From: an uncultured Verrucomicrobiota bacterium
GTDB lineage: Bacteria > Verrucomicrobiota > Kiritimatiellia > RFP12 > UBA3636
NCBI GenBank assembly: GCA_946624575.1
Contig: CAMOSH010000001.1
Span: 7,778-71,777, forward strand
Direction of reading: 5' to 3'
DNA length: 64,000 nt
Positions 53,040-63,796 of the stretch are shown piece after piece. The translations under genes and the position numbers were made by a program. The first letter of the stretch is position 1, and each line of letters starts with the position of its first letter. The notes beneath the pieces are model-generated. The model worked only from the letters and a program-made list of their open reading frames with translations, was not told the DNA's origin and did no database searches.

Positions 53040-54053
53040 CTACAGGAACTGGCGCAGATATCGCAGGTCGCCGCCGTAGAGCATGCGCAGGTCGGTGACC
53101 CCGTGCTTGATCATCGCGATGCGCTCGACTCCCATGCCGAAGGCGTAGCCGTAACATTCCGGATCGTAGCCGACTTTCTCGAACACGCGCGTGTCGACGA
53201 TCCCGGCTCCCATCACTTCGATCCAGCCGCTCTGCTTGCAGACGGCGCACCCGCGCCCCTTGCAGACATGGCAGGTGAAATCGACTTCTACGGACGGCTC
53301 CGTGAACGGAAAGAAGTGCGGGCGGAACCGCACCTGCACCGACTGCCCCATCATTTCGCGCGCGAAGTGCGCCAGCGTCGATTTGAGGTCGGCCAGCGAA
53401 ACCGGCTTGACGTCGACGTAGAGCCCTTCGATCTGGTGGAAATTGGCCGCGTGTGTCGCGTCGGTTGTGTCGCGCCGGTAGCAACGGCCCGGGTTGATTA
53501 TGCGCACCGGGGGCTTTTTCGCGAGCATGGCGCGGATCTGCACCGGGGAGGTCTGGGTGCGCAGCAGGAGTTCGGGTCCCAGCCAGAACGTGTCGCGAGC
53601 GTCGCGGGAGGGATGGTGCTTCGCCGTGTTGAGCGCGTCGAAGTTGTTGAATTCCGTCTCGATGTCCGGCCCGTCGGCGACGGTGAATCCAAGGCGGGCG
53701 AAGATGCGCGTCGTCTCCTCGATGACTTCCGACACGGGATGGATCGCGCCGGTACCGCGCCAGGATCCGGGCATCGAGAAATCGAACGAGACCTTGGGCG
53801 CCGCAGATGTCTCCGCCGCCGCGCGGCGCTCCTCAAGCGCCGCCGAGAGCGCGCCGCGGAGTGCGTTGAGCGCCTGGCCGAACGCGGGCTTTTCGGCGGG
53901 GGGAACGTCGCGCAGCCCCTTCATCAGTGCCGGCAGAAGCCCGTTGCGGCCAAGGTATTTGACTCGCGCCGCTTCGATCGCGACCGAATCGGCCGCAGCC
54001 GAAATTTCGGAGAGCGCTTCCGCCTGCTTGGCGGCAATTTCGGAAAGTGTCAT
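53040..54053 (-). CDS. pheS: phenylalanine--tRNA ligase alpha subunit
   Basis: 337 aa from the ATG at 54053. Class II motifs (FRPHFFPFTEPSVEVD, GAGIVDTRVFEKVGYDPECYGYAFGMGVERIAMIKHGV). No pheT adjacent. Confidence 0.85.
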   Translation of the reverse strand: MTLSEIAAKQAEALSEISAAADSVAIEAARVKYLGRNGLLPALMKGLRDVPPAEKPAFGQALNALRGALSAALEERRAAAETSAAPKVSFDFSMPGSWRGTGAIHPVSEVIEETTRIFARLGFTVADGPDIETEFNNFDALNTAKHHPSRDARDTFWLGPELLLRTQTSPVQIRAMLAKKPPVRIINPGRCYRRDTTDATHAANFHQIEGLYVDVKPVSLADLKSTLAHFAREMMGQSVQVRFRPHFFPFTEPSVEVDFTCHVCKGRGCAVCKQSGWIEVMGAGIVDTRVFEKVGYDPECYGYAFGMGVERIAMIKHGVTDLRMLYGGDLRYLRQFL

Positions 54054-54171
54054 GGTGTCGTCGTGGAAAAAAACCGGCGCCCGCCTCTTGCGGGCGCGCG
54101 GGAGCGAATGATAGCGCAATGCGCCGCCGTTGCCAAATGAAAAAAAGTGCCGTTCCGGCGCCACGCCGCCG

Positions 54172-54921
54172 TCAAGACCCTTTCGCGCCGAAGGAGAACC
54201 CCGCGCCCGGCAGGCTGCAGAACAGGAATTCGATGGGATACAGGACGAGTCGCGCGGCCAGTTCCGCGGCCATTGTCTGGAACTTGTCATACCACGCCAC
54301 GCTGTAGGGGTCGCCGGTCTCCTTGAAGACGAGCCGGTGCCACGCCACCTCTTCCCAGAGGCCATTGGCGATGACTCTGTTCGTTCCGACCCTGCGGTAT
54401 TCCCTGACGGCCAGCTCCGTCGTTTCGTCGTCCATCGGACAATGGCAGTCCTTGAAGCGGAGGCGCGGGCTGTCGGGCGCAAGAAACCAGGCTTCGAGCC
54501 TCCCTTCGTCGATTTCGGCGGCGCGGCCTCCGAGGAAGTCCCAGAAACGGTCGACGTAGGCATGCGCCTGCGTCCGGTTGATCACGGACTGGATTTTCCC
54601 GAACGTGATGTCGCGGTCGAATCCGAAATCGTTCCCCATGTCGGTGCCGACGGCCGCGGCGATGCGCTCGGCGCATATCCGGAAACTGTCTTCCGGGTCG
54701 GCGCCGCGAGCCAGGGCCGCCTCGTAGTCGCGGAGCGCCGCCCGCCCGCCGATGTCGAAATCGATCTCCGGCTCGTCCTTGGCCAGGAGCGCATCGCCCC
54801 GCGACCGACGCCGCGGCCAGATCGGCTCCGCGAGAACTTCCCTCACGGCCCGCCCGAACGGATCGCTGAAAAGAGCGATGGCATTCCCCATCCTGTGAAT
54901 CGTGTCGCTTGTCATTGTCAT
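54172..54921 (-). CDS. hypothetical protein
   Basis: 249-aa ORF with normal amino-acid composition and no recognisable motifs. GC-rich like the backbone. Confidence 0.35.
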   Translation of the reverse strand: MTMTSDTIHRMGNAIALFSDPFGRAVREVLAEPIWPRRRSRGDALLAKDEPEIDFDIGGRAALRDYEAALARGADPEDSFRICAERIAAAVGTDMGNDFGFDRDITFGKIQSVINRTQAHAYVDRFWDFLGGRAAEIDEGRLEAWFLAPDSPRLRFKDCHCPMDDETTELAVREYRRVGTNRVIANGLWEEVAWHRLVFKETGDPYSVAWYDKFQTMAAELAARLVLYPIEFLFCSLPGAGFSFGAKGS

Positions 54922-55052
54922 GGCATTCCTATGTCTCCCGGGACAGTGTCGGCTCGTTTACAAGACTCGATCCGTTCCTTAATGAACGATTCCTGAAAAT
55001 GGCCGTCAAAACAACTCCGATGAGTCCTATGGCCCCGCCAACGCTATGCCGA

Positions 55053-56801
55053 TTATCCCAGGATTTGTCGCAGACTTGCCTTCAAATTGCGCTGTCTGGC
55101 CTCAATGAATGACCGGAAATCCTCAATTGCAAGGCTCGTGTCATCATCCACGAACAAGTCGCCGGTCGAGACATGTTTTTGACTGGCCCACTCCTGCAAG
55201 GGGGCGTCGCCTTTGCCACCTGAACCGTTTTCCTGCGTGCCGAGGAGCTGCAGATTGAGGACGGTGTTGTAGTTTTCCAGGAAGAACTTGCGGTCATCGT
55301 CGGAAAGGTTCAACTGTGCCAATTTGGCCTTGTCCTCAAAGATGGTCTTCGGATGCATGTGATCCTGGGCAACGGCCTTTCCGAACTGAATCGCCTTGTC
55401 CGGATACAGCAACTGAAGGACGAGCGTGCATTCTGGACTTTGATATTGGGACGAAAGCAGTCCCTCAAGGAAATCGTCCTCAAAAGAATAGTTTTTAACG
55501 GCATCTCCAGTGCAAGAGGCGACAATTTCATCGAACGGGAAGCTGCCCGAGGAATCGTTGCGAATGACCTCGCGGAATCTCCGCAGGATCGTGTCTGACT
55601 GTCCACTGAAAATCCGCTTCAGCAAAGACAGGTTCAGCCATTTGAGGATTGACTTCCTGTCCTTTTCCGGGAAGGACGGCTTCGACACCTTGTCGGCAAG
55701 ACGGTTCTTGTACAGCCAATAGGCGATCGGGATCGCCGCGTTCTTTGCGGTGAGCAGCGAATCGGAATATCCAATCGACTCCAGAAGCTCGAACGTGGAC
55801 ACCAACGCCTTTTTGATGTCATCCCACGCCGCTTCGAACCGGCGCACCTGCTCCAAATTGAAATTGGCCAACTTGAATCGGATGTCCTCCGATTCGCAAA
55901 CGAGCATTGCCTTCGAGATGAAATCCTGGGAAACGTTGAAGTTGGGATTGCCAAAGCCGAAAATGAGCTTCCTGACGTTGGCGATCTCCTTTCTCGCGTC
56001 ATGACGCTCCCAGTTTGCGGACGAGATGGACATCAGAAGGTCGGAAAACGACAATGGCGTTCCGCCGCTGTTCGTCCGGAGGAAGATGTCCAGAACCTTG
56101 TCCTGGTCCTGCGATGCGATTGTCGTGTAGTTCATCACCTCTTCCGTATGGTATTTGCGGAAGAGCTTCATAAGAGTCGCCCGGGCGAATTCGTTGCCAT
56201 GCAATTTGTTTTCAAACAGGAAGGACACGAGTTTCCCGTCATCGAAACCTGCGATCTCACCGACTTTGAACCAGAAGTACCCTTCATTGCAGTTGCATGA
56301 GCGGACTTCGTCATCGGTCAGAAACTTGAACTCGTACTCCTTCTGATTGTCGATTTGCGATGGCAATCGGCGCCCCAGATTCAGATACAGGCGCCTCGTG
56401 GGGAACGCGTCCTCGGTGTCCCTGTACCACTTGCCGGCCTTCTTGTACCTGTAGGTTCCGAAAAGGCCGATGTAGAGGCTCGTAAGGCGCTGTTGCCCGT
56501 CGATCACGGCGAAAAAGTCCGGCACTGCACCGGAGGCAAAGTCCGGGTTGTTCTCGTGGAAATGTTCGCAGTAATTCAGCAGAAAGCCATAGAACTGCTG
56601 GGTATTCCGTATGGCTGCGTCCTCCACGTGCCACAACATGAACGAATTGATGGGGTAGCCGCGCATGATGCTGTCGAAAAGCATTTCGATCTGCTCCGGG
56701 GACCAGACAAACTTCCGCTGAATGGCAGGGAGGACAAAATGGTGGGATTCGATATTCTCCATCGCCGTCTTGATGGTCTTGTCGATTGTAATCGCTGACA
56801 T
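55053..56801 (-). CDS. GmrSD-like type IV (modification-dependent) restriction endonuclease, DUF262 + DUF1524
   Basis: N-terminal DUF262 signatures HFVLPAIQRKFVWSPEQIEMLFDSIMRGYPINSFMLW and FFAVIDGQQRLTSLYIGL (the DGQQR motif). C-terminal DUF1524 His-Me-finger-like VAQDHMHPKTIF. Region is AT-richer than the flanks. Confidence 0.7.
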   Translation of the reverse strand: MSAITIDKTIKTAMENIESHHFVLPAIQRKFVWSPEQIEMLFDSIMRGYPINSFMLWHVEDAAIRNTQQFYGFLLNYCEHFHENNPDFASGAVPDFFAVIDGQQRLTSLYIGLFGTYRYKKAGKWYRDTEDAFPTRRLYLNLGRRLPSQIDNQKEYEFKFLTDDEVRSCNCNEGYFWFKVGEIAGFDDGKLVSFLFENKLHGNEFARATLMKLFRKYHTEEVMNYTTIASQDQDKVLDIFLRTNSGGTPLSFSDLLMSISSANWERHDARKEIANVRKLIFGFGNPNFNVSQDFISKAMLVCESEDIRFKLANFNLEQVRRFEAAWDDIKKALVSTFELLESIGYSDSLLTAKNAAIPIAYWLYKNRLADKVSKPSFPEKDRKSILKWLNLSLLKRIFSGQSDTILRRFREVIRNDSSGSFPFDEIVASCTGDAVKNYSFEDDFLEGLLSSQYQSPECTLVLQLLYPDKAIQFGKAVAQDHMHPKTIFEDKAKLAQLNLSDDDRKFFLENYNTVLNLQLLGTQENGSGGKGDAPLQEWASQKHVSTGDLFVDDDTSLAIEDFRSFIEARQRNLKASLRQILG

Positions 56802-56898
56802 AAAAACACTCCTGTGTTGGTTGGTTGTTGGTGAAAGTAGTGGTTGGTTGTTCGCCCCGCCCGGCGGGCGCCGGACGGGGCGAATTGAGTTCCAACCG

Positions 56899-57261
56899 CT
56901 ACTTCGCCGGCCTGTATTTCGCCAGCTGCGGCTGGGCCTCCAGAAGCCACGCCCAGTCGCGATCGTCGAGGGCTTTCCACATTCCGGCCTTCCAGTATTC
57001 GTCCGTGCGGAGATCGACGAATTCGGGGCGCTCGCGCAGGAGTTCCACCCAGTCGTAGGTCGTGACTTCGGACCAGTCGCACTTGTCGGCGAGCTGGGGG
57101 AGTTTTGTCAGAATCCGCACCCAGTCCTCGCCGTTGATGCGCTTCCAGCTCAAGTCGTAGTTCCGTTCGGCCTCTTCGTAGTTCTCCAGAATCAGGTCGG
57201 CGATGTCGGCCGATGCGAGATGCGACGTGTCGAGTTTGCTGTTGCAGTTTTCCGTGTTCAT
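56899..57261 (-). CDS. hypothetical protein with three W-x-x-LL repeats
   Basis: MNTENCNS...EDWVRILTKLPQLADKCDW / YDWVELLRERPEFVDLRTDEYW / DRDWAWLLEAQPQLAKY. AAGGAAAA SD upstream of the ATG at 57261. The longer track ORF (to 57456) is an upstream in-frame extension. Confidence 0.35.
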   Translation of the reverse strand: MNTENCNSKLDTSHLASADIADLILENYEEAERNYDLSWKRINGEDWVRILTKLPQLADKCDWSEVTTYDWVELLRERPEFVDLRTDEYWKAGMWKALDDRDWAWLLEAQPQLAKYRPAK

Positions 57262-57464
57262 GTGGCGTTGTTTTCCTTGGGGTGTGGTTGGCAAATGCCC
57301 AGAAGGGACCGGGACGATCCCGTGGAACGTGATTTCCATTATCGCCAACTCCCGTTGAAAGATCAAGGTTAAAACGGGAAAAACTCGGTGAACCGGAAAA
57401 TTTTTTTTGTGCTGCCGCGCTTTTCCGGGACCGCGCCGTCGCACTTCGCCCCGCATGGGATGGC

Positions 57465-58075
57465 CAAGTCAAGGTCATCACGGGTTTGAGGCGATGCGGG
57501 AAATCGTATCTGCTCCGCAAACTCTTTTTCGACCACCTCCTTGCGTCCGGCGCAACACCAGAAGACATTCTTGTCATCGATCTCGATCGCGACGACATGG
57601 CGGACTTGCGCCATCCGCTTCGCCTTGGATCCCATGTCCGTGAATGGATTGGAAAAACGACTGCGCGGCGGCATCTGTTCGTTGACGAAATCCAGCGGTG
57701 CGAATCCGTGCCGAACCCGGCCATTCCCGAAGGAGCGCCGATAACGTTATCTGCAACGAGTAGCTTGCGAGAGGACAATCCGTGGACGTCGGCGTTGTTC
57801 CCGGGCGCGAGACCGACGTCAAGGGCAATTCCATCCACGTCAACCGAGAAATCGATTTTGTTGTGAACAAACCCGGAACACGCGTGTACATCCAGTCCGC
57901 ATGGGCGATGCCCGATGATGACAAGCGGGAGCGCGAACTCGCTCCGTTTTCCAAGACCGGCGACTCCTTCCGCAAGATTGTCGTTCGGGGCGATGTCGGA
58001 CGTGGCTGGCAGGATGACCGAGGAAGCCTTCATGTAGGCCTGGCGGAGTTTCTGCTCGACGAAACGCTTGTCTGA
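57465..58075 (+). pseudogene. frameshifted and internally deleted AAA-family ATPase (AAA_14 + DUF4143 type) remnant
   Basis: Frame 0: KVITGLRRCGKSYLLRKLF...DILVIDLD...RHLFVDEIQRCE (P-loop and Walker B). Frame +2 from about 57782: NSIHVNREIDFVVNKPGTRVYIQSAW...FRKIVVRGD (DUF4143 C-terminus). Only about 200 of the expected 400 codons remain. Confidence 0.5.
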
Positions 58076-58227
58076 TTCGTGGACATCACGCTCTGCAGCG
58101 GAAACGACAAGCACTTCCGCGGCATCGAAGGAATCCGCGCGCAAGTGTTCCGGCCGGAGTAGCGTTGCCATTGTCAACGCCTCCCGCTTCCGTTCGCGGC
58201 CTCCACAGTGGCGTCTGCCGCCAGAGG

Positions 58228-58465
58228 CCGGACGGGGTGCGACCTGTTGTCGTTTCATCCTTTCGCCCTGTTGCCGAGCGGGCCGGACCTCGGGGGCAAG
58301 CCACCCCCGGTCGCGGTCGGTCGACGAAAGGACAACAGGACATCAGGACGAAAGGTCGTGCCCCGTTCGCCGAAGGTTCCGGGGGCGCGACCGATCAAGT
58401 CTCCCCGTTTGCCAAAGGCATCAGGGGCGCGACCTGTTGTCCTTTCGTCCTTTCGTCCTGTTGTC
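58228..58465. repeat. iteron-like array of 8-bp motifs (CTGTTGTC / CTTTCGTC) in direct and inverted blocks
   Basis: Block 1 (58233-58273) gcgacc TGTTGTC gTTTCaTC CTTTCGcC CTGTTGcC gagc. Inverted block (58316-58350) GACGAAAG GACAACAG GACATCAG GACGAAAG. Block 3 (58421-58462) gcgacc TGTTGTC CTTTCGTC CTTTCGTC CTGTTGTC gagc. GGGGCGCGACC repeated at 58377 and 58416. Block 3 overlaps the last about 20 codons of the McrC-like ORF. Confidence 0.45.
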
Positions 58466-60050
58466 GAGCACACTCCAAAATTGGATCAAGCCGGGTGGAT
58501 TTGGATGGATCCAGCGGACGCCCTTCGGCATAGGCCCTGAACAAGGCCATTCCATCGACTTGTACTGCGAGGATGTTTTCCGACAGGCAATTCGTGTATT
58601 CCTGCGAAATATTTTCGCGAATCCAGCTGAACAAGGGAACGGTGATCGTGGCGAAATTGCTGACGGGCTTCCCCTCGGCAACCTGTTCGTCACCCTTGTT
58701 GGGAAAGACGAAGGCGTTGCAGACCTTAAGATTGTTATCCTTGCAAAGGTCCGCGAATGCCAGCTGATAGAGAAACTGCTTGTCGATGTCGCCGACGCCC
58801 GGGCAGTTGCTGATCGTCTTTCCGCCGGTTCCAAACTCCGGAAGATAATACTTCGCGTCGAGGATTACGAGCCTAGTTTTGGCGGTGTCAACGGCAATAA
58901 AGTCAGGCCGAAGCCGTGAACCCGAAGCGCCGTCTTCCCCTTCACTTTGTTCGGCATCGGCTTGTTGGCCGTGTTTCGTCCATTTGGGCGGCTCGATGAA
59001 ATCTTTGAGCGCTTTGCCATTCCCCTCGTTACAGCGCAGGCCTAGATCGCCCGGCTTCTTGTCCATTTGGTCCCCGAACACGTCCTTGACGGCACGTTCC
59101 CACAGCTGCGCGACACCGTTCATTCCGAAGGAGAGGGACTGGTTGTCGGCGGCCTTGTTCTCGGCGGTCTCCCGGATCAGGTCCTTCATCAGCGAAAGGG
59201 TGTGGCGCGATTTCGTGACGAACTGGACCTTCAGTTCCTTGTCGATCTGGGCGATCTGGTAGTCGGGCTCGCCGAACCAGTCGAGTTCCTCCTCGCTCAG
59301 GAGCGGCACGTTCACCCGCAGGACGGACGAAAGTCCCAGTTCCTCCAGCTTGCGTCCCCACATGGTGACGAGGCACTGGTGGAGACGCGTGATGTAGTGG
59401 TCCTCGTCCGACCAGGCGAGCTCGGTGGCGTAGTCCATGTAGACGGGACGTGCCTTTCCGTCCTTCTTCAGGAACACGGGCTGGTATTGGTCGATGGTCG
59501 TCTCCCAGTCGATCTCGCCCTGGCCGTTGTGCTCCAGCTCCCGCCGTTGGACTGTGTAGACGCCGTTCTCGAGGTAGTCGCGCAGGAGGCGCACGGCGAG
59601 TTCAAGCAGACTTTCCTTTTGCTCTTCCGTTTCCTCGGTCTGGTCATCGATCTGGCTCCGGTTTCCGGGGTAGCGGTCGATGGCCTGGAGAACGACATCC
59701 CGGACGGACGGATCTTGCAGCTGGCTCCTGGAAACGAACTTCGGCATGAAGAAGAAGGTCAGGTTTCTTCCCGTTCCCTCCTCGCCGTTGTCGACATAAT
59801 CGTAGAGCCCGACGAACCGGAACGAATACCCGTCGTTCGTCTTTTTGACGACGGTCGTCTCGTCCTTGTCGGCAAGACCGTTGTCCATCGACTTCTTCAG
59901 GCGGGCAAGGAAATCATCGTCTAGCCAGTCAAGATTCGTTTCGCCGGACTCCGCCTCCGACGACTCCCCCATCGAAGCCGAAACGTCCTTCCGGAACGTC
60001 TCGACGCCATAGGATGTTTCTTCGCGGAGGTAGACGAGACGAATGCTCAT
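58395..60050 (-). CDS. McrC-like / LlaJI-type restriction endonuclease subunit (PD-(D/E)xK)
   Basis: PDFIAVD...RLVILDAKYY resembles the McrC PD...D-x-K nuclease motif ((I/V)xDxKYK). 4-bp overlap with the upstream McrB-like gene. Confidence 0.6.
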   Translation of the reverse strand: MSIRLVYLREETSYGVETFRKDVSASMGESSEAESGETNLDWLDDDFLARLKKSMDNGLADKDETTVVKKTNDGYSFRFVGLYDYVDNGEEGTGRNLTFFFMPKFVSRSQLQDPSVRDVVLQAIDRYPGNRSQIDDQTEETEEQKESLLELAVRLLRDYLENGVYTVQRRELEHNGQGEIDWETTIDQYQPVFLKKDGKARPVYMDYATELAWSDEDHYITRLHQCLVTMWGRKLEELGLSSVLRVNVPLLSEEELDWFGEPDYQIAQIDKELKVQFVTKSRHTLSLMKDLIRETAENKAADNQSLSFGMNGVAQLWERAVKDVFGDQMDKKPGDLGLRCNEGNGKALKDFIEPPKWTKHGQQADAEQSEGEDGASGSRLRPDFIAVDTAKTRLVILDAKYYLPEFGTGGKTISNCPGVGDIDKQFLYQLAFADLCKDNNLKVCNAFVFPNKGDEQVAEGKPVSNFATITVPLFSWIRENISQEYTNCLSENILAVQVDGMALFRAYAEGRPLDPSKSTRLDPILECARQQDERTKGQQVAPLMPLANGET

Positions 60051-61750
60051 GCGTGTTCGCCGGTTTTGTTCCAGGGGGCCTTCCAGTTTTCATCGTCCTT
60101 ATCGGTAACATTTTTGAAGACATCTTTGGCCCCAGGCCACGTGTCCACAATATCCGAGTAGGTTTTGATTTTGTCTCCGAAAAGCTTTTTGCGGCACATT
60201 CGGCCGGCGTCTTCCCAAAGGTACATAAGAACCTTCGACTTGAACTGGTCCGCGGATACGGATTTGTTGTTCTCCGGCTTTACGAACCACGGCCCCATCA
60301 ACTTATCCTCGTTGACTCCATTGTCTGAAAGTTGCTTATTGACAAATCTACGAATCTGGTCCCAATAGTAGCCCGAATCGCCAACAACCCACTCGCTGGG
60401 AGCACCTTTGTCACCTTGTTTGTTATACCCCTCGTCAATTCCGACATACTTGAACTCCCACCGGCGCTTGAAGGCGGTGTCCATCGGGAAAACGCCCTGG
60501 TCGGCGCTGTTCATCGTCGCCCAGATGTACATGTTGGAGGGAATGCGAAGGCGGCATTCCTTCCAGATGTTATTCCCGTTTTCGTCTTTGCCCGGAACAA
60601 CCTTCAGAAACTTGCGTGCCGACTCGCATTTCGCAAGTTCTTCCTTGAGATATCGTTTGATGTCTTCAGAAGCCGCCACATCGTACTCGCTAGCGGCACC
60701 GTCTCCAAAGAACGGCTTGATTGATTCGTCGTCACCGTCACTCCACTTGCCTCCGCGATCCAGCAGCTGGAACACGTCGCCGAAGACCGCTGCCGCGTTG
60801 GCGCGGTTGATCTCCTCGATGACGAGACAGTGGTTGTGGGCGTGATCTTTTAGCGCATCCACCAGCACACGGAGGAACGGACCGGGGACGAATTGGTAGG
60901 CAATTTCTTCCGATTTCTTGCCGTCCGTATCCGTTGTTTCTTTCATCACCGGCTTGTAGCAACCGACGAACTGGGCGTAGGAATACGTAGGATAGAACGT
61001 CACGCGCTCGTAGCGGCGTTTGACAACTTTTTCATTGTCGATGTCGACAAAATATCCGAATATCTCATTGCCGTCAACATCCTTTTTGGATGCCTTCCCC
61101 GCATTGTCCACTTTTCCTTCGACAGCTTCTTTGAGCTTATGGCTCTTCCCCGTCCCTGGTGCGCCAAAGTAGATGAGGTTGCGGGAGAGCGGCTTGTCGT
61201 TTTGGTCAGCTGGGTGGCTGGCTGGAACTAGTGGAGAACCAGCCTGTGCGTCATGGCTGCTGTCAGAGTCAAAGACTTGTCCATGATACTTGGCGGTTGC
61301 ATCTACAACTGTGCTGACTTTGGTAACAAGTTCTTTGAAAAAGCTACGCCATGCAGTTGCATCTTTAGGCGAAGCGACAATTTGCTCATATGCTTTTTGA
61401 GGGGCCTCACATCCATCCCGATAAAACCATAGTGTTCTTGGTTTCGCGTTTTTCTTTTCAGCAGTTTTAATGTTTTTTCCAAGTTGGTCTTCATTGAGCA
61501 TAAATCCGGGAGACTCAATTTGTAGTTCCTTTAATCTGTTCAAAATGTCTTCTGGATCATTCCCCTGCACACTAAGACCAAACCCAGGTTTGCTAGGCTT
61601 AGTGTAACCGTATACAAAGATGATTGTCACATTACCAATATCACACAATGCGCAGTCGTAAACATTCCCGTTTGGTTGTGACCATGACTTGGGTTCCGTG
61701 ACAAATTGCCGTGCAATTTCTGCTTTCTGTTCGTTACTCAGGGGGTTCAT
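60047..61750 (-). CDS. McrB-like GTPase (AAA+ AAA_5) restriction-system subunit with N-terminal DNA-binding domain
   Basis: Walker A NLIYFGAPGTGKSH. McrB signature CLVIEEINRANAAAVFGDVFQLLDR. The 5' third is strongly AT-rich. Confidence 0.75.
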   Translation of the reverse strand: MNPLSNEQKAEIARQFVTEPKSWSQPNGNVYDCALCDIGNVTIIFVYGYTKPSKPGFGLSVQGNDPEDILNRLKELQIESPGFMLNEDQLGKNIKTAEKKNAKPRTLWFYRDGCEAPQKAYEQIVASPKDATAWRSFFKELVTKVSTVVDATAKYHGQVFDSDSSHDAQAGSPLVPASHPADQNDKPLSRNLIYFGAPGTGKSHKLKEAVEGKVDNAGKASKKDVDGNEIFGYFVDIDNEKVVKRRYERVTFYPTYSYAQFVGCYKPVMKETTDTDGKKSEEIAYQFVPGPFLRVLVDALKDHAHNHCLVIEEINRANAAAVFGDVFQLLDRGGKWSDGDDESIKPFFGDGAASEYDVAASEDIKRYLKEELAKCESARKFLKVVPGKDENGNNIWKECRLRIPSNMYIWATMNSADQGVFPMDTAFKRRWEFKYVGIDEGYNKQGDKGAPSEWVVGDSGYYWDQIRRFVNKQLSDNGVNEDKLMGPWFVKPENNKSVSADQFKSKVLMYLWEDAGRMCRKKLFGDKIKTYSDIVDTWPGAKDVFKNVTDKDDENWKAPWNKTGEHA

Positions 61751-61834
61751 AGCATTAGTTCCTTACTGTTTTTCTCTCCGCTCCTTAGCGGCTGGAGGGG
61801 TTGGTTGTTGAAAATGAAGTGGGCTGGATTCGTT

Positions 61835-62092
61835 CTACCGCTCGTGCCGTCGGGTTGGCGAGTACTGGCACCCGGCGCCGGTGGAGGTGGAGCCGCACCA
61901 GATGCACTTGCCGCCGCCGTGCCCGTGGCGGTGGAGGCGGTTCGGCCCGTACTGGCAGCCGTGGCCGTAGGACGAGCTGCCGCACCATTCGCAGTGCTTC
62001 TCGTCGTCGATGTGCTCGTGGAGGTGGTCGGGTCCGTACTGGCAGCCGTGGCCGTAGGACGTGCTGTTGCAGTGCCTGCATTTCGTGCTCAT
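61835..62092 (-). CDS. small Cys/His-rich protein with three tandem CxxC-(8)-GxGC-QYGP-x-x-(L/R)H repeats
   Basis: 85 aa: CRHCNSTSYGHGCQYGPDHLHEH / CEWCGSSSYGHGCQYGPNRLHRH / CIWCGSTSTGAGCQYSPTRRHE. GGAGAA SD 7 nt upstream of the ATG. GC-rich like recD. The DNA repeats are near-identical. Confidence 0.45.
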   Translation of the reverse strand: MSTKCRHCNSTSYGHGCQYGPDHLHEHIDDEKHCEWCGSSSYGHGCQYGPNRLHRHGHGGGKCIWCGSTSTGAGCQYSPTRRHER

Positions 62093-62149
62093 AGTCGGTT
62101 CTCCGCGTGTCCTTCGTGAATTCAGTATGCAAGAATATCCCGGTGGCAG

Positions 62150-63796
62150 TCAAGAATCGTTTCGTGCCGCCAGTCCCGAAACGCGCTCGATGGCGTGTTG
62201 CGCGCAGTGGCGGATCGCATCTTCGGATCCCCAGATGGCGACGGTCTTCTTCGTCCGCGTGATCGCGGTGTAGAGGATCTCGCGTGTGAGGAGCTTGAAG
62301 GAATCGGACTCCTCCTTGCGTTCCTCCGGCTTGCCGGTGTTGGGCGGAAGCACAATCGCCACGTCGTCGAATTCCGACCCCTGCGCCTTGTGAACGGTCG
62401 ATGCAAACGCGAGTTCCGTATCCGGCAGCAGCTCCAGCCTGATCTTTCTGCCCCCAGGGAGATGCAGCGTCTTCGGGTCGTCCGGCATGACCACGCCGAC
62501 GTCGCCGTTGTCAACCCCCAGCGTCCGGTCGTTCTTCGTGATCATCAACGGAACCGGACACTTCTTATCCAGCAGCTTCTTGATCCATCTGGCGAGTTGC
62601 TCCGAACCAAAGGGGCCGTGGCGCAGGGCGCAAAGCACACGGAAGTCGTTCAGGTGCGCGAGGGCGAACTCGACGGAATCCTTTGGCTCGCCCTCCTTGC
62701 CTTCCGGCTTATAAGCGGGACTTCCGGCGAAAGCCGCGAAGCCGGCCCGAACCTTGTCCGCGAAGCCTGGCCACTTCGCAGGATCAAAGACCGCGTCCCT
62801 GGACAGGCCGGCAAGGTCGACGTAGGAGACGAGATCGGACTTGCCTTTCAGGATGGCCATCGCCTCGTCGGCCTTCTCGTCGGTGCCGGCGTTGACGGCG
62901 GCGGCTAGCTTTGCGATGTCGCCGTCTGGCGGGAATCGGCGACTCTCCACGAGGCGCGAGACCGCGACGCCCGGGAAGCGGCAGAGATCATGGAAGACGC
63001 ACCCACGCTCAACGGAGGCGAGCTGGTCGGCATCGCCGGCGAGGGTGAGACGGCAGGAGGCCGGAATGGCGTCGACAAGCTTCGCCATGAGCGGCAGGTC
63101 GATCATGCTCGCCTCGTCGATGACGAGCCAGTCGAAGGCGAGCGGATTGTCGCGGTTGTGCTTGAAGGTCACTAAATCGTAGTTCGATTCCAGCAGCTTG
63201 TGGATGGTCGTGGCCTTCGGAATGGCGAAACCCATGTCCTTTGGCATGGACTCCATCATGCGGGCGGCGGCCTTGGCGGTGGGTGCGGCAAGTCCCAGCC
63301 GGAAGTCCGGCCGGCCGTCGTGGATGAACTTGACGGCGCGGGATATCGTAAACGTCTTGCCGGTGCCGGGGCCGCCGGTGAGAATGGAGAAACGCGAGTT
63401 GCACATCGCGATCACGGCATCCCTTTGTTCGGAGCGGAGGCCGGCGTAGAACAGGTCGTTTGGAAGTTCCGTGACGGAATCGTCCATTTTCGTCTGAATG
63501 CTGCGCACTATCCAATCCCGGACCCGCCGTTCATAGACCCAGTTGCGCCGCGTGTAGAGGTGGCCGTCGGCAACGACGAACGGCGTACGGACTGTGTCGG
63601 GGGATGTGCCTTCCACCACGAAGGAAACGACATCGGGAAAGCCCTTGAGCAGCTCTCGCTGCTCTTCGTCGATTTCGCGGCAGACGTCGCCCTCCTCGAG
63701 GGCGCCAACCGTCGCGGCGCACAGCTCCGCCACGTTCACGGCCTTGTCGCCGCCGCCGATCATGCGGAAAACGAAATCGAAAACAGTGTCTTTCAT
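62150..63796 (-). CDS. recD: RecD-like helicase (exodeoxyribonuclease V alpha subunit family)
   Basis: Walker A LTGGPGTGKTFT, motif II WLVIDEASMIDLPLMAKL, LAGDADQL, and C-terminal SF1B motifs (STVHKAQGSEFDDVAIVLP). Confidence 0.75.
   Translation of the reverse strand: MKDTVFDFVFRMIGGGDKAVNVAELCAATVGALEEGDVCREIDEEQRELLKGFPDVVSFVVEGTSPDTVRTPFVVADGHLYTRRNWVYERRVRDWIVRSIQTKMDDSVTELPNDLFYAGLRSEQRDAVIAMCNSRFSILTGGPGTGKTFTISRAVKFIHDGRPDFRLGLAAPTAKAAARMMESMPKDMGFAIPKATTIHKLLESNYDLVTFKHNRDNPLAFDWLVIDEASMIDLPLMAKLVDAIPASCRLTLAGDADQLASVERGCVFHDLCRFPGVAVSRLVESRRFPPDGDIAKLAAAVNAGTDEKADEAMAILKGKSDLVSYVDLAGLSRDAVFDPAKWPGFADKVRAGFAAFAGSPAYKPEGKEGEPKDSVEFALAHLNDFRVLCALRHGPFGSEQLARWIKKLLDKKCPVPLMITKNDRTLGVDNGDVGVVMPDDPKTLHLPGGRKIRLELLPDTELAFASTVHKAQGSEFDDVAIVLPPNTGKPEERKEESDSFKLLTREILYTAITRTKKTVAIWGSEDAIRHCAQHAIERVSGLAARNDS

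Follow-up and report, generated by a model that had tools for sequence, protein, structure and literature searches.

The mini gene, a short open reading frame (ORF) in the 64,000-nucleotide stretch analyzed here (the window; contig CAMOSH010000001.1 of an uncultured Verrucomicrobiota bacterium), is a real, conserved gene of a widespread family without an entry in any of the family and structure libraries searched. Its product of 85 residues, the mini-protein, reads MSTKCRHCNSTSYGHGCQYGPDHLHEHIDDEKHCEWCGSSSYGHGCQYGPNRLHRHGHGGGKCIWCGSTSTGAGCQYSPTRRHER in the ORF translation and consists of three Cys/His repeats. The gene had been singled out in a first reading of the DNA letters (the original prediction). 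The explanation that we prefer, with about even confidence, is that a separately promoted gene encodes a three-site Cys3His module that would be structured by metal and would bind a polyanion, probably nucleic acid; the gene would lie at the core edge of an insertion site for defense genes, and its product would not be an obligatory nuclease subunit. In this mechanism, each 29-residue repeat would wrap one metal ion with its C-x2-C knuckle, a third Cys (eight residues further on), and a His (another seven residues along). The three repeats would pack into one compact, metal-dependent globule, and the assembled module would bind a polyanion, most likely nucleic acid. The mini-protein would be no part of RecBCD and probably no obligatory subunit of the McrB/LlaJI-like enzyme encoded beside it.

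A single-sequence search gave 34 relatives of the mini-protein, and a profile search gave 248. By an exhaustive HMMER search, 417 cluster representatives (50% identity) were matched, and for 274 of these the E-value was below 1e-10; over these searches, homolog E-values go down to 1e-50. In species-representative genomes, 166 stretches were confirmed by tblastn, and the carriers in this set include Kiritimatiellia, Lentisphaerae, and Verrucomicrobia of ruminant guts. Further carriers include Chlorobiaceae, Desulfovibrio, Treponema, Planctomycetota, Acidobacteria, Fibrobacter, Rhodoferax, and an Acinetobacter isolate, and metagenomes contributed at least 185 additional confirmed stretches. The members share approximately 60% identity across phyla, and their source names, where given, are all "hypothetical" or "uncharacterized". 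Indeed, the mini-protein is unmatched in Pfam (none at E ≤ 1), NCBIfam, PHROGs, and PADLOC, and a sequence search of the PDB gave no match (the best, HycB3, has E = 5.8), so that the original prediction, which did not recognize this as a described family, holds in all libraries searched. A literature search for printed sequence motifs found nothing, and no relative was found in viral contigs, phage records, or plasmid records. Selection on the protein is evident from a median ratio of nonsynonymous to synonymous substitution rates (dN/dS) of 0.12 over 689 gene pairs, drawn from 61 distinct 85-codon genes. One locus, L003, encodes the identical protein through synonymous changes only, the proportions of nonsynonymous and synonymous differences being 0 (pN) and 0.075 (pS).

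The repeats follow one another with a period of exactly 29 residues, rather than the approximately 23 first proposed, and their CxxC motifs are located at residues 5, 34, and 63. Each repeat has the invariant spacing C-x2-C-x8-C-x7-H, within the motif form CxxC[GN]S..G.GC...H. The content of the mini-protein, 9 Cys (11% of the residues) and 11 His, agrees with the three repeats, nine Cys, and roughly ten His originally noted. Its His-rich linkers are HEHIDDEKH and HRHGHGGG; its extra His residues are not conserved in the family. An alignment of 42 diverse members is invariant at the C, C, G, C, and H of each repeat and at H56. Three units are the commonest number (189 of 250 proteins); two are found in 60 proteins and four in a single one. 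Exactly nine Cys are present in 162 of the 189 three-repeat domains, and both the two-repeat and the four-repeat forms keep complete units, with ligands scaling at four per repeat. Close two-repeat relatives in the same recBCD–mini–McrBC context (L004:6001-6171 and L005:88-258) lack exactly one 87-nt unit, matching window positions 61910-61996, and other two-repeat forms use an alternative deletion register; both natural kinds of one-unit deletion regenerate complete units. Since the ligand count scales with repeat number and deletions regenerate complete units, the most likely arrangement is one metal ion per repeat, probably Zn2+, in a Cys3His site. Four ligands per repeat also favors separate sites over a multinuclear metal-thiolate cluster, as judged from the sequences. 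Zinc ribbons and rubredoxin-type sites hold each metal between a pair of CxxC (or CPxCG) knuckles, an arrangement that the mini-protein does not show, and the ferredoxin-type iron-sulfur (Fe-S) motif CxxCxxCxxxCP is absent from it.

Predictions with AlphaFold2 gave a mean local confidence (pLDDT) of 87.6 and a global confidence (pTM) of 0.72 with an alignment of 14 sequences, and 91.1 and 0.74, respectively, with 42 sequences, all five models then reaching at least 88.8. The model is compact, and its secondary structure is limited to isolated bridges and three-residue helices, with no helix of four or more residues. A compact fold with almost no regular secondary structure would therefore depend on metal. 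A search with the predicted fold found no structural neighbor. Beyond the ligands, S10, Y13/Y42, G14, W65, and S78-P79 are conserved across phyla. The net charge of the mini-protein is +2, the family median is +5, and 93% of the domains are positive; the median number of aromatic residues is 7 per domain (189 members). This family is thus basic and rich in conserved aromatic residues, which suggests a polyanion-binding module, most likely for nucleic acid, rather than a metal store. By analogy, such a composition resembles nucleic-acid-binding zinc knuckles more than metallothioneins. Of the two descriptions in the original prediction, zinc-knuckle or metallothionein-like, the first therefore stands, in that the mini-protein is of the Cys/His metal-knuckle type, and the second does not, given its Cys content, its aromatic residues, and the lack of a match to PF02069. 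The model and the survey of homologs and neighborhoods that had been suggested at the outset thus gave a confident fold of a novel kind among the structures searched and relatives that are linked to restriction genes or recBCD in a minority of cases.

The repeats had been called nearly identical at the DNA level and ascribed to recent duplication, and neither statement is correct. The pairwise DNA identities among the three units are 75%, 61%, and 64%, Tandem Repeats Finder reported nothing for the mini gene, and a separate repeat search likewise found no DNA tandem repeat. The sole long exact repeat, of 28 nt, is shared by units 1 and 2 (62034-62061 and 61947-61974). In the first half of each unit the residues are position-specific: orthologous repeats agree at 0.7–0.9, whereas different repeats of one protein agree at only 0.01–0.36. 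Both linkers (HEHxDDEKH-like and HRHGxGxNK-like) are kept across phyla as well. Since these position-specific residues and linkers are conserved across phyla, the triplication is, on the sequence evidence, ancient and predates the spread of the family. A different pattern is seen at the two residues after the third Cys, which vary among species yet do not differ among the three repeats of a given protein: QY in the mini-protein, and IH, YH, PY, or PH elsewhere. At these two positions, agreement is 0.64 and 0.93 within a protein versus 0.26 and 0.48 between orthologous repeats. The use of identical codons is only slightly higher within genes than between genes (0.52 vs. 0.46), and recent gene conversion was thus not adopted as the main cause of the agreement within proteins. 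The shared residues look more like a symmetric structural or functional constraint; gene conversion probably explains the 28-nt identity in the window. Another relative (L094:6474-6695; P0033) is a chimeric ORF of 73 residues, in which an AAA+ ATPase-like start with a Walker A motif (GAPGLGK) is fused in frame to the last mini-protein repeat. Located downstream of a type III restriction-modification pair and of a gene for RadC, this ORF was probably left behind by recombination.

The retroviral-type CCHC knuckle of nucleocapsid proteins (PF00098) is the best analogy for how the mini-protein may work. Both have tandem short knuckles starting with C-x2-C-G and 3 Cys plus 1 His per site, and both are basic and nearly devoid of secondary structure, with an aromatic residue conserved within the knuckle or adjacent to it. 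However, the spacing C-x2-C-x8-C-x7-H of the mini-protein differs from the C-x2-C-x4-H-x4-C of PF00098, as does the ligand order. Moreover, the unit is 29 residues long compared with 14–18, the three units are packed into one globule in the model (pTM 0.74), and there is no match to the PF00098 profile. The DnaJ cysteine-rich domain (PF00684) is similar in its repeated CxxC-Gly-rich motifs, zinc-held loops, and scarcity of secondary structure. In that domain, four CxxCxGxG motifs pair into two C4 sites, i.e., two CxxC pairs per zinc, whereas the mini-protein has one CxxC, followed by [GN]S, plus a Cys and a His per site, and does not match the profile. Haloarchaeal CPxCG-related zinc-finger proteins such as Brz (PMC2253796) are likewise stand-alone prokaryotic proteins with CxxCG knuckles, often basic and with a possible regulatory role. 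Yet in these archaeal proteins, which are unrelated in sequence, two CPxCG pairs form one C4 site, and there is neither a triple repeat nor a Cys3His site.

Sec-type signal peptides are present in approximately one-fifth of the family members (for example, P0042, P0051, and P0053), and a few members carry canonical twin-arginine motifs, RRDFLK or RRNFLTK (Tat-like examples are P0036, P0037, and P0038). The mini-protein of the window has no leader or signal peptide in its translation. The module also forms the N-terminal end of multi-pass membrane proteins and the C-terminal end of single-pass membrane proteins, of secreted proteins (one of them fascin-like), of a lipoprotein, and of a papain-like protease; fusion examples are P0191, P0212, P0234, P0210, P0153, P0198, P0192, P0231, and P0174. 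Fusion to such varied proteins indicates that the module is an autonomous domain, and together with the signal peptides it suggests that the module works on both sides of the membrane. Since members exported by the Sec route should be able to take up their cofactor beyond the cytoplasm, a simple ion, with zinc as the obvious candidate, is favored over an Fe-S cluster, which ferredoxin-type proteins receive only in the cytoplasm.

The features of the window that bear on the mini gene are collected in Table 1. A good Shine-Dalgarno sequence (SD), GGAG, precedes the ORF of 85 residues, as had been predicted. A consensus promoter scan around the gene found two sites versus 0.4 expected, and most relatives have an extended −10 element, TGnTATAAT, approximately 25 nt 5' of the SD. 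In most Kiritimatiellia-type loci (L012-L045), an extended −10 of the form TTTGnTATAAT is strongly conserved upstream of the gene, with CGAAAGGAAAACTGAC-ATG approximately 10 nt on. This short fixed leader suggests high constitutive expression of the mini gene in these loci. An Rfam scan of the whole window matched no RNA family.

Table 1. Position of the mini gene, its repeats and signals, and neighboring genes in the window.
Feature	Position	Strand	Description
Mini-protein CDS (triple-repeat Cys3His, 85 aa)	61835..62092	minus	ORF and translation, homologs, dN/dS, AlphaFold; stop codon 61835-61837
Repeat 1, aa 4-32	61997..62083	minus	KCRHCNSTSYGHGCQYGPDHLHEH + linker IDDEK; invariant C5, C8, G14, C17, H25
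Repeat 2, aa 33-61	61910..61996	minus	HCEWCGSSSYGHGCQYGPNRLHRH + linker GHGGG; invariant C34, C37, G43, C46, H54, H56
Repeat 3, aa 62-85	61838..61909	minus	KCIWCGSTSTGAGCQYSPTRRHER; invariant C63, C66, C75, H83
Shine-Dalgarno GGAG	62101..62104	minus	8 nt 5' of the mini-gene ATG; read from the sequence
Promoter-like site TTGACT-18-CATACT (sigma-70-like)	62124..62153	minus	Overlaps the recD stop codon; consensus scan
C/A-rich, G-poor 3' tract, 36 nt	61788..61823	minus	CCCACTTCATTTTCAACAACCAACCCCTCCAGCCGC; alignments; homology to relatives stops just past the tract
recD (exodeoxyribonuclease V alpha subunit)	62150..63796	minus	Upstream neighbor; TIGR01447, 342 bits vs. cutoff 310
McrB-like AAA+ (AAA_5) subunit	60047..61750	minus	Begins 84 nt downstream of the mini gene, same strand
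LlaJI-type nuclease subunit, McrC position	58395..60050	minus	PF09563, E = 2.4e-41; 4-nt overlap with the McrB-like gene
GmrSD_N/DUF262 gene	55053-56801		Downstream of the mini gene, in the defense island
pheS	53040-54563		Core gene past the defense island

The location between recD and an McrB-like gene, at a junction of base composition, agrees with the original prediction. The G+C fractions of the mini gene, recD, and pheS are 0.68, 0.63, and 0.65, respectively, compared with 0.50, 0.58, and 0.53 for the McrB-like, LlaJI-type, and GmrSD_N genes; the first 400 nt of the McrB-like gene have only 0.40–0.45. In contigs with an identical mini gene, recB and recC lie further upstream (L001/L002 gene order). 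The recBCD–mini order recurs in a relative with a RecD of 65% identity, but the homology of this relative to the window ends approximately 45 nt past the mini stop codon, and beyond that point it carries a different McrBC, with an McrB that is 26% identical and an unrelated McrC. This end of homology before a different McrBC, together with the base composition, puts the mini gene at the core-genome edge of a site that receives different restriction systems. The C/A-rich tract downstream of the stop codon is common to four loci whose downstream genes differ, and since homology to relatives ends just after it, the tract is taken from the alignments as the core-side edge of the island. A weak hairpin beyond the tract is not significant (z = 0.54) and shows no covariation across four sequences. 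The mini gene probably heads a transcript that is able to read through into the restriction genes.

The defense island itself occupies window positions 54700-61800, between pheS and the mini gene, and no gene was identified with confidence in its stretch 56800-58390. Direct and inverted repeats are clustered at 58234-58469, across the 3' end of the LlaJI-type gene. This cluster, possibly an island border or a repeat element, includes two direct repeats, one of 46 nt (58234 and 58424; 89% identical) and one of 32 nt (58361 and 58403), as well as a pair of 28-nt inverted arms (58323-58350 and 58430-58457).

Five contigs carry mini genes whose proteins are 96–99% identical to that of the window within unrelated flanks, and their coding sequences align almost without mismatch. 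Examples that correspond to window positions 61835-62092 are L097:3571-3828, L098:3938-4195, L099:836-1093, and L100:8001-8258. In these contigs, homology begins approximately 5 nt before the ATG, with a common CCCC, and ends at the stop codon. One downstream flank is common to L097, L098, and L100, and another to the window, L004, L093, and L101. From these alignments, the pattern suggests that the mini gene moves or recombines as a gene-sized unit, or that dispersed copies are kept alike. An integron-cassette origin was considered and dropped; in an inspection by eye only, no attC-like core site was seen.

For the family at large, 175 loci were reduced to 116 non-redundant contexts, in which McrB-like and GmrSD-like genes were located with locally built hidden Markov models (HMMs); the local gene calls and HMMs are crude, and many contigs are short. 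In 7 of 96 contexts, the first gene downstream of the mini gene (+1 slot) is of this kind, compared with none of 107 for the first gene upstream (−1 slot) and 10 of 799 for the remaining slots combined (Fisher p = 0.001 and 0.005), although most loci come from related rumen lineages, so that the number of independent events may be lower than counted. Six of the seven +1 genes are co-oriented with the mini gene, and the gaps are 8–98 nt. The +1 enzymes belong to two unrelated families and share only 22–31% (GmrSD-like) or 25–45% (McrB-like) identity; therefore, they represent independent juxtapositions. McrB-like genes are found in approximately 8 of the 116 contexts, without consistent co-occurrence of McrB and McrC. 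Other arrangements are McrB–McrC–mini with a 4-nt overlap (L092), GmrSD–258 aa–mini, and SRA–mini–GmrSD. RecC is encoded within three genes of the mini gene in 6 contexts, as recCBD–mini or mini–recC–recB. The mini gene lies just upstream of recC-recB in L179:361-531 (with a gap of 22 nt), L063:7992-8258, L060, and L161. Since the mini gene of the window follows recD and those of other lineages precede recC-recB, the link to recBCD is present at both ends of the operon.

The remaining neighborhoods are diverse. Among 75 downstream and 71 upstream neighbors in the first loci, mostly from species-representative genomes, no Pfam family occurred more than 3 times, and no neighbor family was seen more than 4 times among 105 neighbors in an independent metagenome sample. 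Nearly all recurrent neighbors in the metagenomes are defense or toxin-antitoxin genes (DUF4143/AAA_14, AbiEii, GmrSD_N, PDDEXK_4, AAA_5, and Macro), and housekeeping neighbors are common (ArgJ, IMPDH, SecDF, GidA, and topoisomerase). All-against-all clustering of the neighbors gave no cluster in more than 10 of 89 loci, the largest being an AAA_14/DUF4143 ATPase, which may be abundant in these genomes anyway. One member with a signal peptide follows a DUF6361/helicase cluster. In L177:1-6168, a two-repeat relative is divergent from genes for LemA, a 576-residue protein, a Metal_resist/LTXXQ (ZraP/CpxP-like) protein, an extracytoplasmic function (ECF) sigma factor, and a histidine kinase; this was the only neighborhood of a metal- or envelope-stress type seen.

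Several of these observations weigh against the reading that we prefer. The excess of restriction genes at +1 over −1 (p about 0.001–0.005) and the overlap of the mini gene with the McrC gene in L092 both suggest more than co-location. The apparent export of one member in five is awkward for nucleic-acid binding as a general role, and the ZraP/CpxP-type gene and ECF sigma cluster beside the L177 relative hint at a role in metal or envelope stress.

Both a partnership and a shared insertion hotspot were considered as the cause of the +1 habit. As a partner, the mini-protein would serve DNA-degrading defense enzymes (type IV restriction, perhaps RecBCD) as the product of the first co-transcribed gene, and would regulate or restrain the nuclease or aid its binding to DNA. 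The slot-specific enrichment on one strand, the independent juxtapositions with two unrelated enzyme families, and the proximity of RecC on either side of its operon all point in this direction. The position also recalls restriction controller (C) proteins, in that the mini gene is directly upstream of a nuclease gene here and in a minority of loci and is mostly co-oriented with it. C proteins, however, are helix-turn-helix proteins tied to type II systems, whereas the mini-protein is a Cys/His module without such a fold and is mostly found away from restriction genes. Indeed, more than 85% of the contexts have no restriction gene nearby and many have housekeeping neighbors, cytoplasmic nucleases are out of reach of members that carry Sec or Tat signals or are fused to secreted proteins, and the base composition of the mini gene in the window is that of the core genome, not of the island. 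McrBC and GmrSD are known to function without such a partner, and the kinship of the rumen lineages noted above lowers the weight of the enrichment. We therefore regard a partnership as possible but rather unlikely. In the widest form of this idea, the module would be new and structurally without precedent, its cytoplasmic members would act with the DNA-degrading defense machinery, and McrBC-like and GmrSD-like enzymes would have repeatedly recruited the module as the first gene of their operons, also beside recBCD, as a DNA-binding adaptor, safety catch, or regulator of nucleases directed at modified or broken DNA; to this proposal, too, we give only a low probability. A census of McrBC systems (PMC11090510) mentions no such small partner in its passages on zinc, small proteins, and cysteine. 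As to the restriction link raised in the original prediction, there is no fixed partner, but a type IV gene is found in the +1 slot far more often than in any other. The antirestriction role raised there is disfavored, as is a strongly acidic ArdA/Ocr-type DNA mimic, since the mini-protein is basic, as is the family, and no relatives were found in the viral, phage, and plasmid collections searched.

Somewhat less probable still is a metal buffer, store, or chaperone, i.e., an analogue of metallothioneins for zinc, nickel, copper, or cadmium that acts in the cytoplasm and has exported paralogs in the periplasm. The abundance of Cys and His and the His-rich linkers would suit such a role, as would the independence of the gene, with its strong promoter and lack of a fixed partner, the existence of both cytoplasmic and exported forms, and the L177 neighborhood. 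The bacterial metallothioneins SmtA/BmtA (PF02069) are likewise small stand-alone proteins, and 9 Cys plus His and predicted zinc binding are shared features. However, the mini-protein does not match their profile, and its discrete four-ligand repeats differ from a shared thiolate cluster. It has a lower Cys content and is rich in aromatic residues, approximately seven of which are conserved per domain, and many of its non-ligand residues are strongly conserved, a pattern that points to a specific fold or surface. Its additional His residues, moreover, are not kept by the family, and no metal transporter or metal regulator recurs among approximately 250 neighbors.

A precursor of a ribosomally synthesized and post-translationally modified peptide (RiPP), or a secreted cationic Cys-rich antimicrobial peptide, is effectively excluded. 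The repeated Cys-containing motifs are core-like, some members are secreted and cationic, and one truncated relative lies 4.7 kb from two radical S-adenosylmethionine (SAM)/SPASM genes, the only context with a radical SAM gene within 5 kb. Yet no maturase recurs beside the mini gene in the 116 contexts, precursor peptides would not be expected to show such identity across phyla or so confident a globular fold, the module is fused to the ends of large proteins, and the member in the window has no leader. Finally, a chance ORF from a repetitive stretch, from which no protein is made and which the original prediction had itself named as the outcome that would overturn it, is refuted by the observed conservation: although the surrounding DNA is rich in GC and has long ORFs in other frames, the low dN/dS, the identical protein kept in L003, the Cys/His pattern that is invariant across phyla, and the lack of a DNA tandem repeat all contradict it.

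Cys/His zinc modules are known as a kind; what is new here is the motif, the repeat architecture, and the predicted fold, none of which is present in the libraries searched. Small proteins are routinely ignored, and this one defines several hundred sequence clusters across many bacterial phyla. If metal binding is true, the mini-protein would represent a new Cys3His repeat architecture among zinc modules. If its position before McrBC-like and GmrSD-like genes and beside recBCD is functional, it would be the first small accessory factor common to unrelated modification-dependent restriction enzymes. If the position instead marks a hotspot, the mini gene would be a useful marker of defense-island insertion sites in Kiritimatiellia-like bacteria of the rumen and gut.

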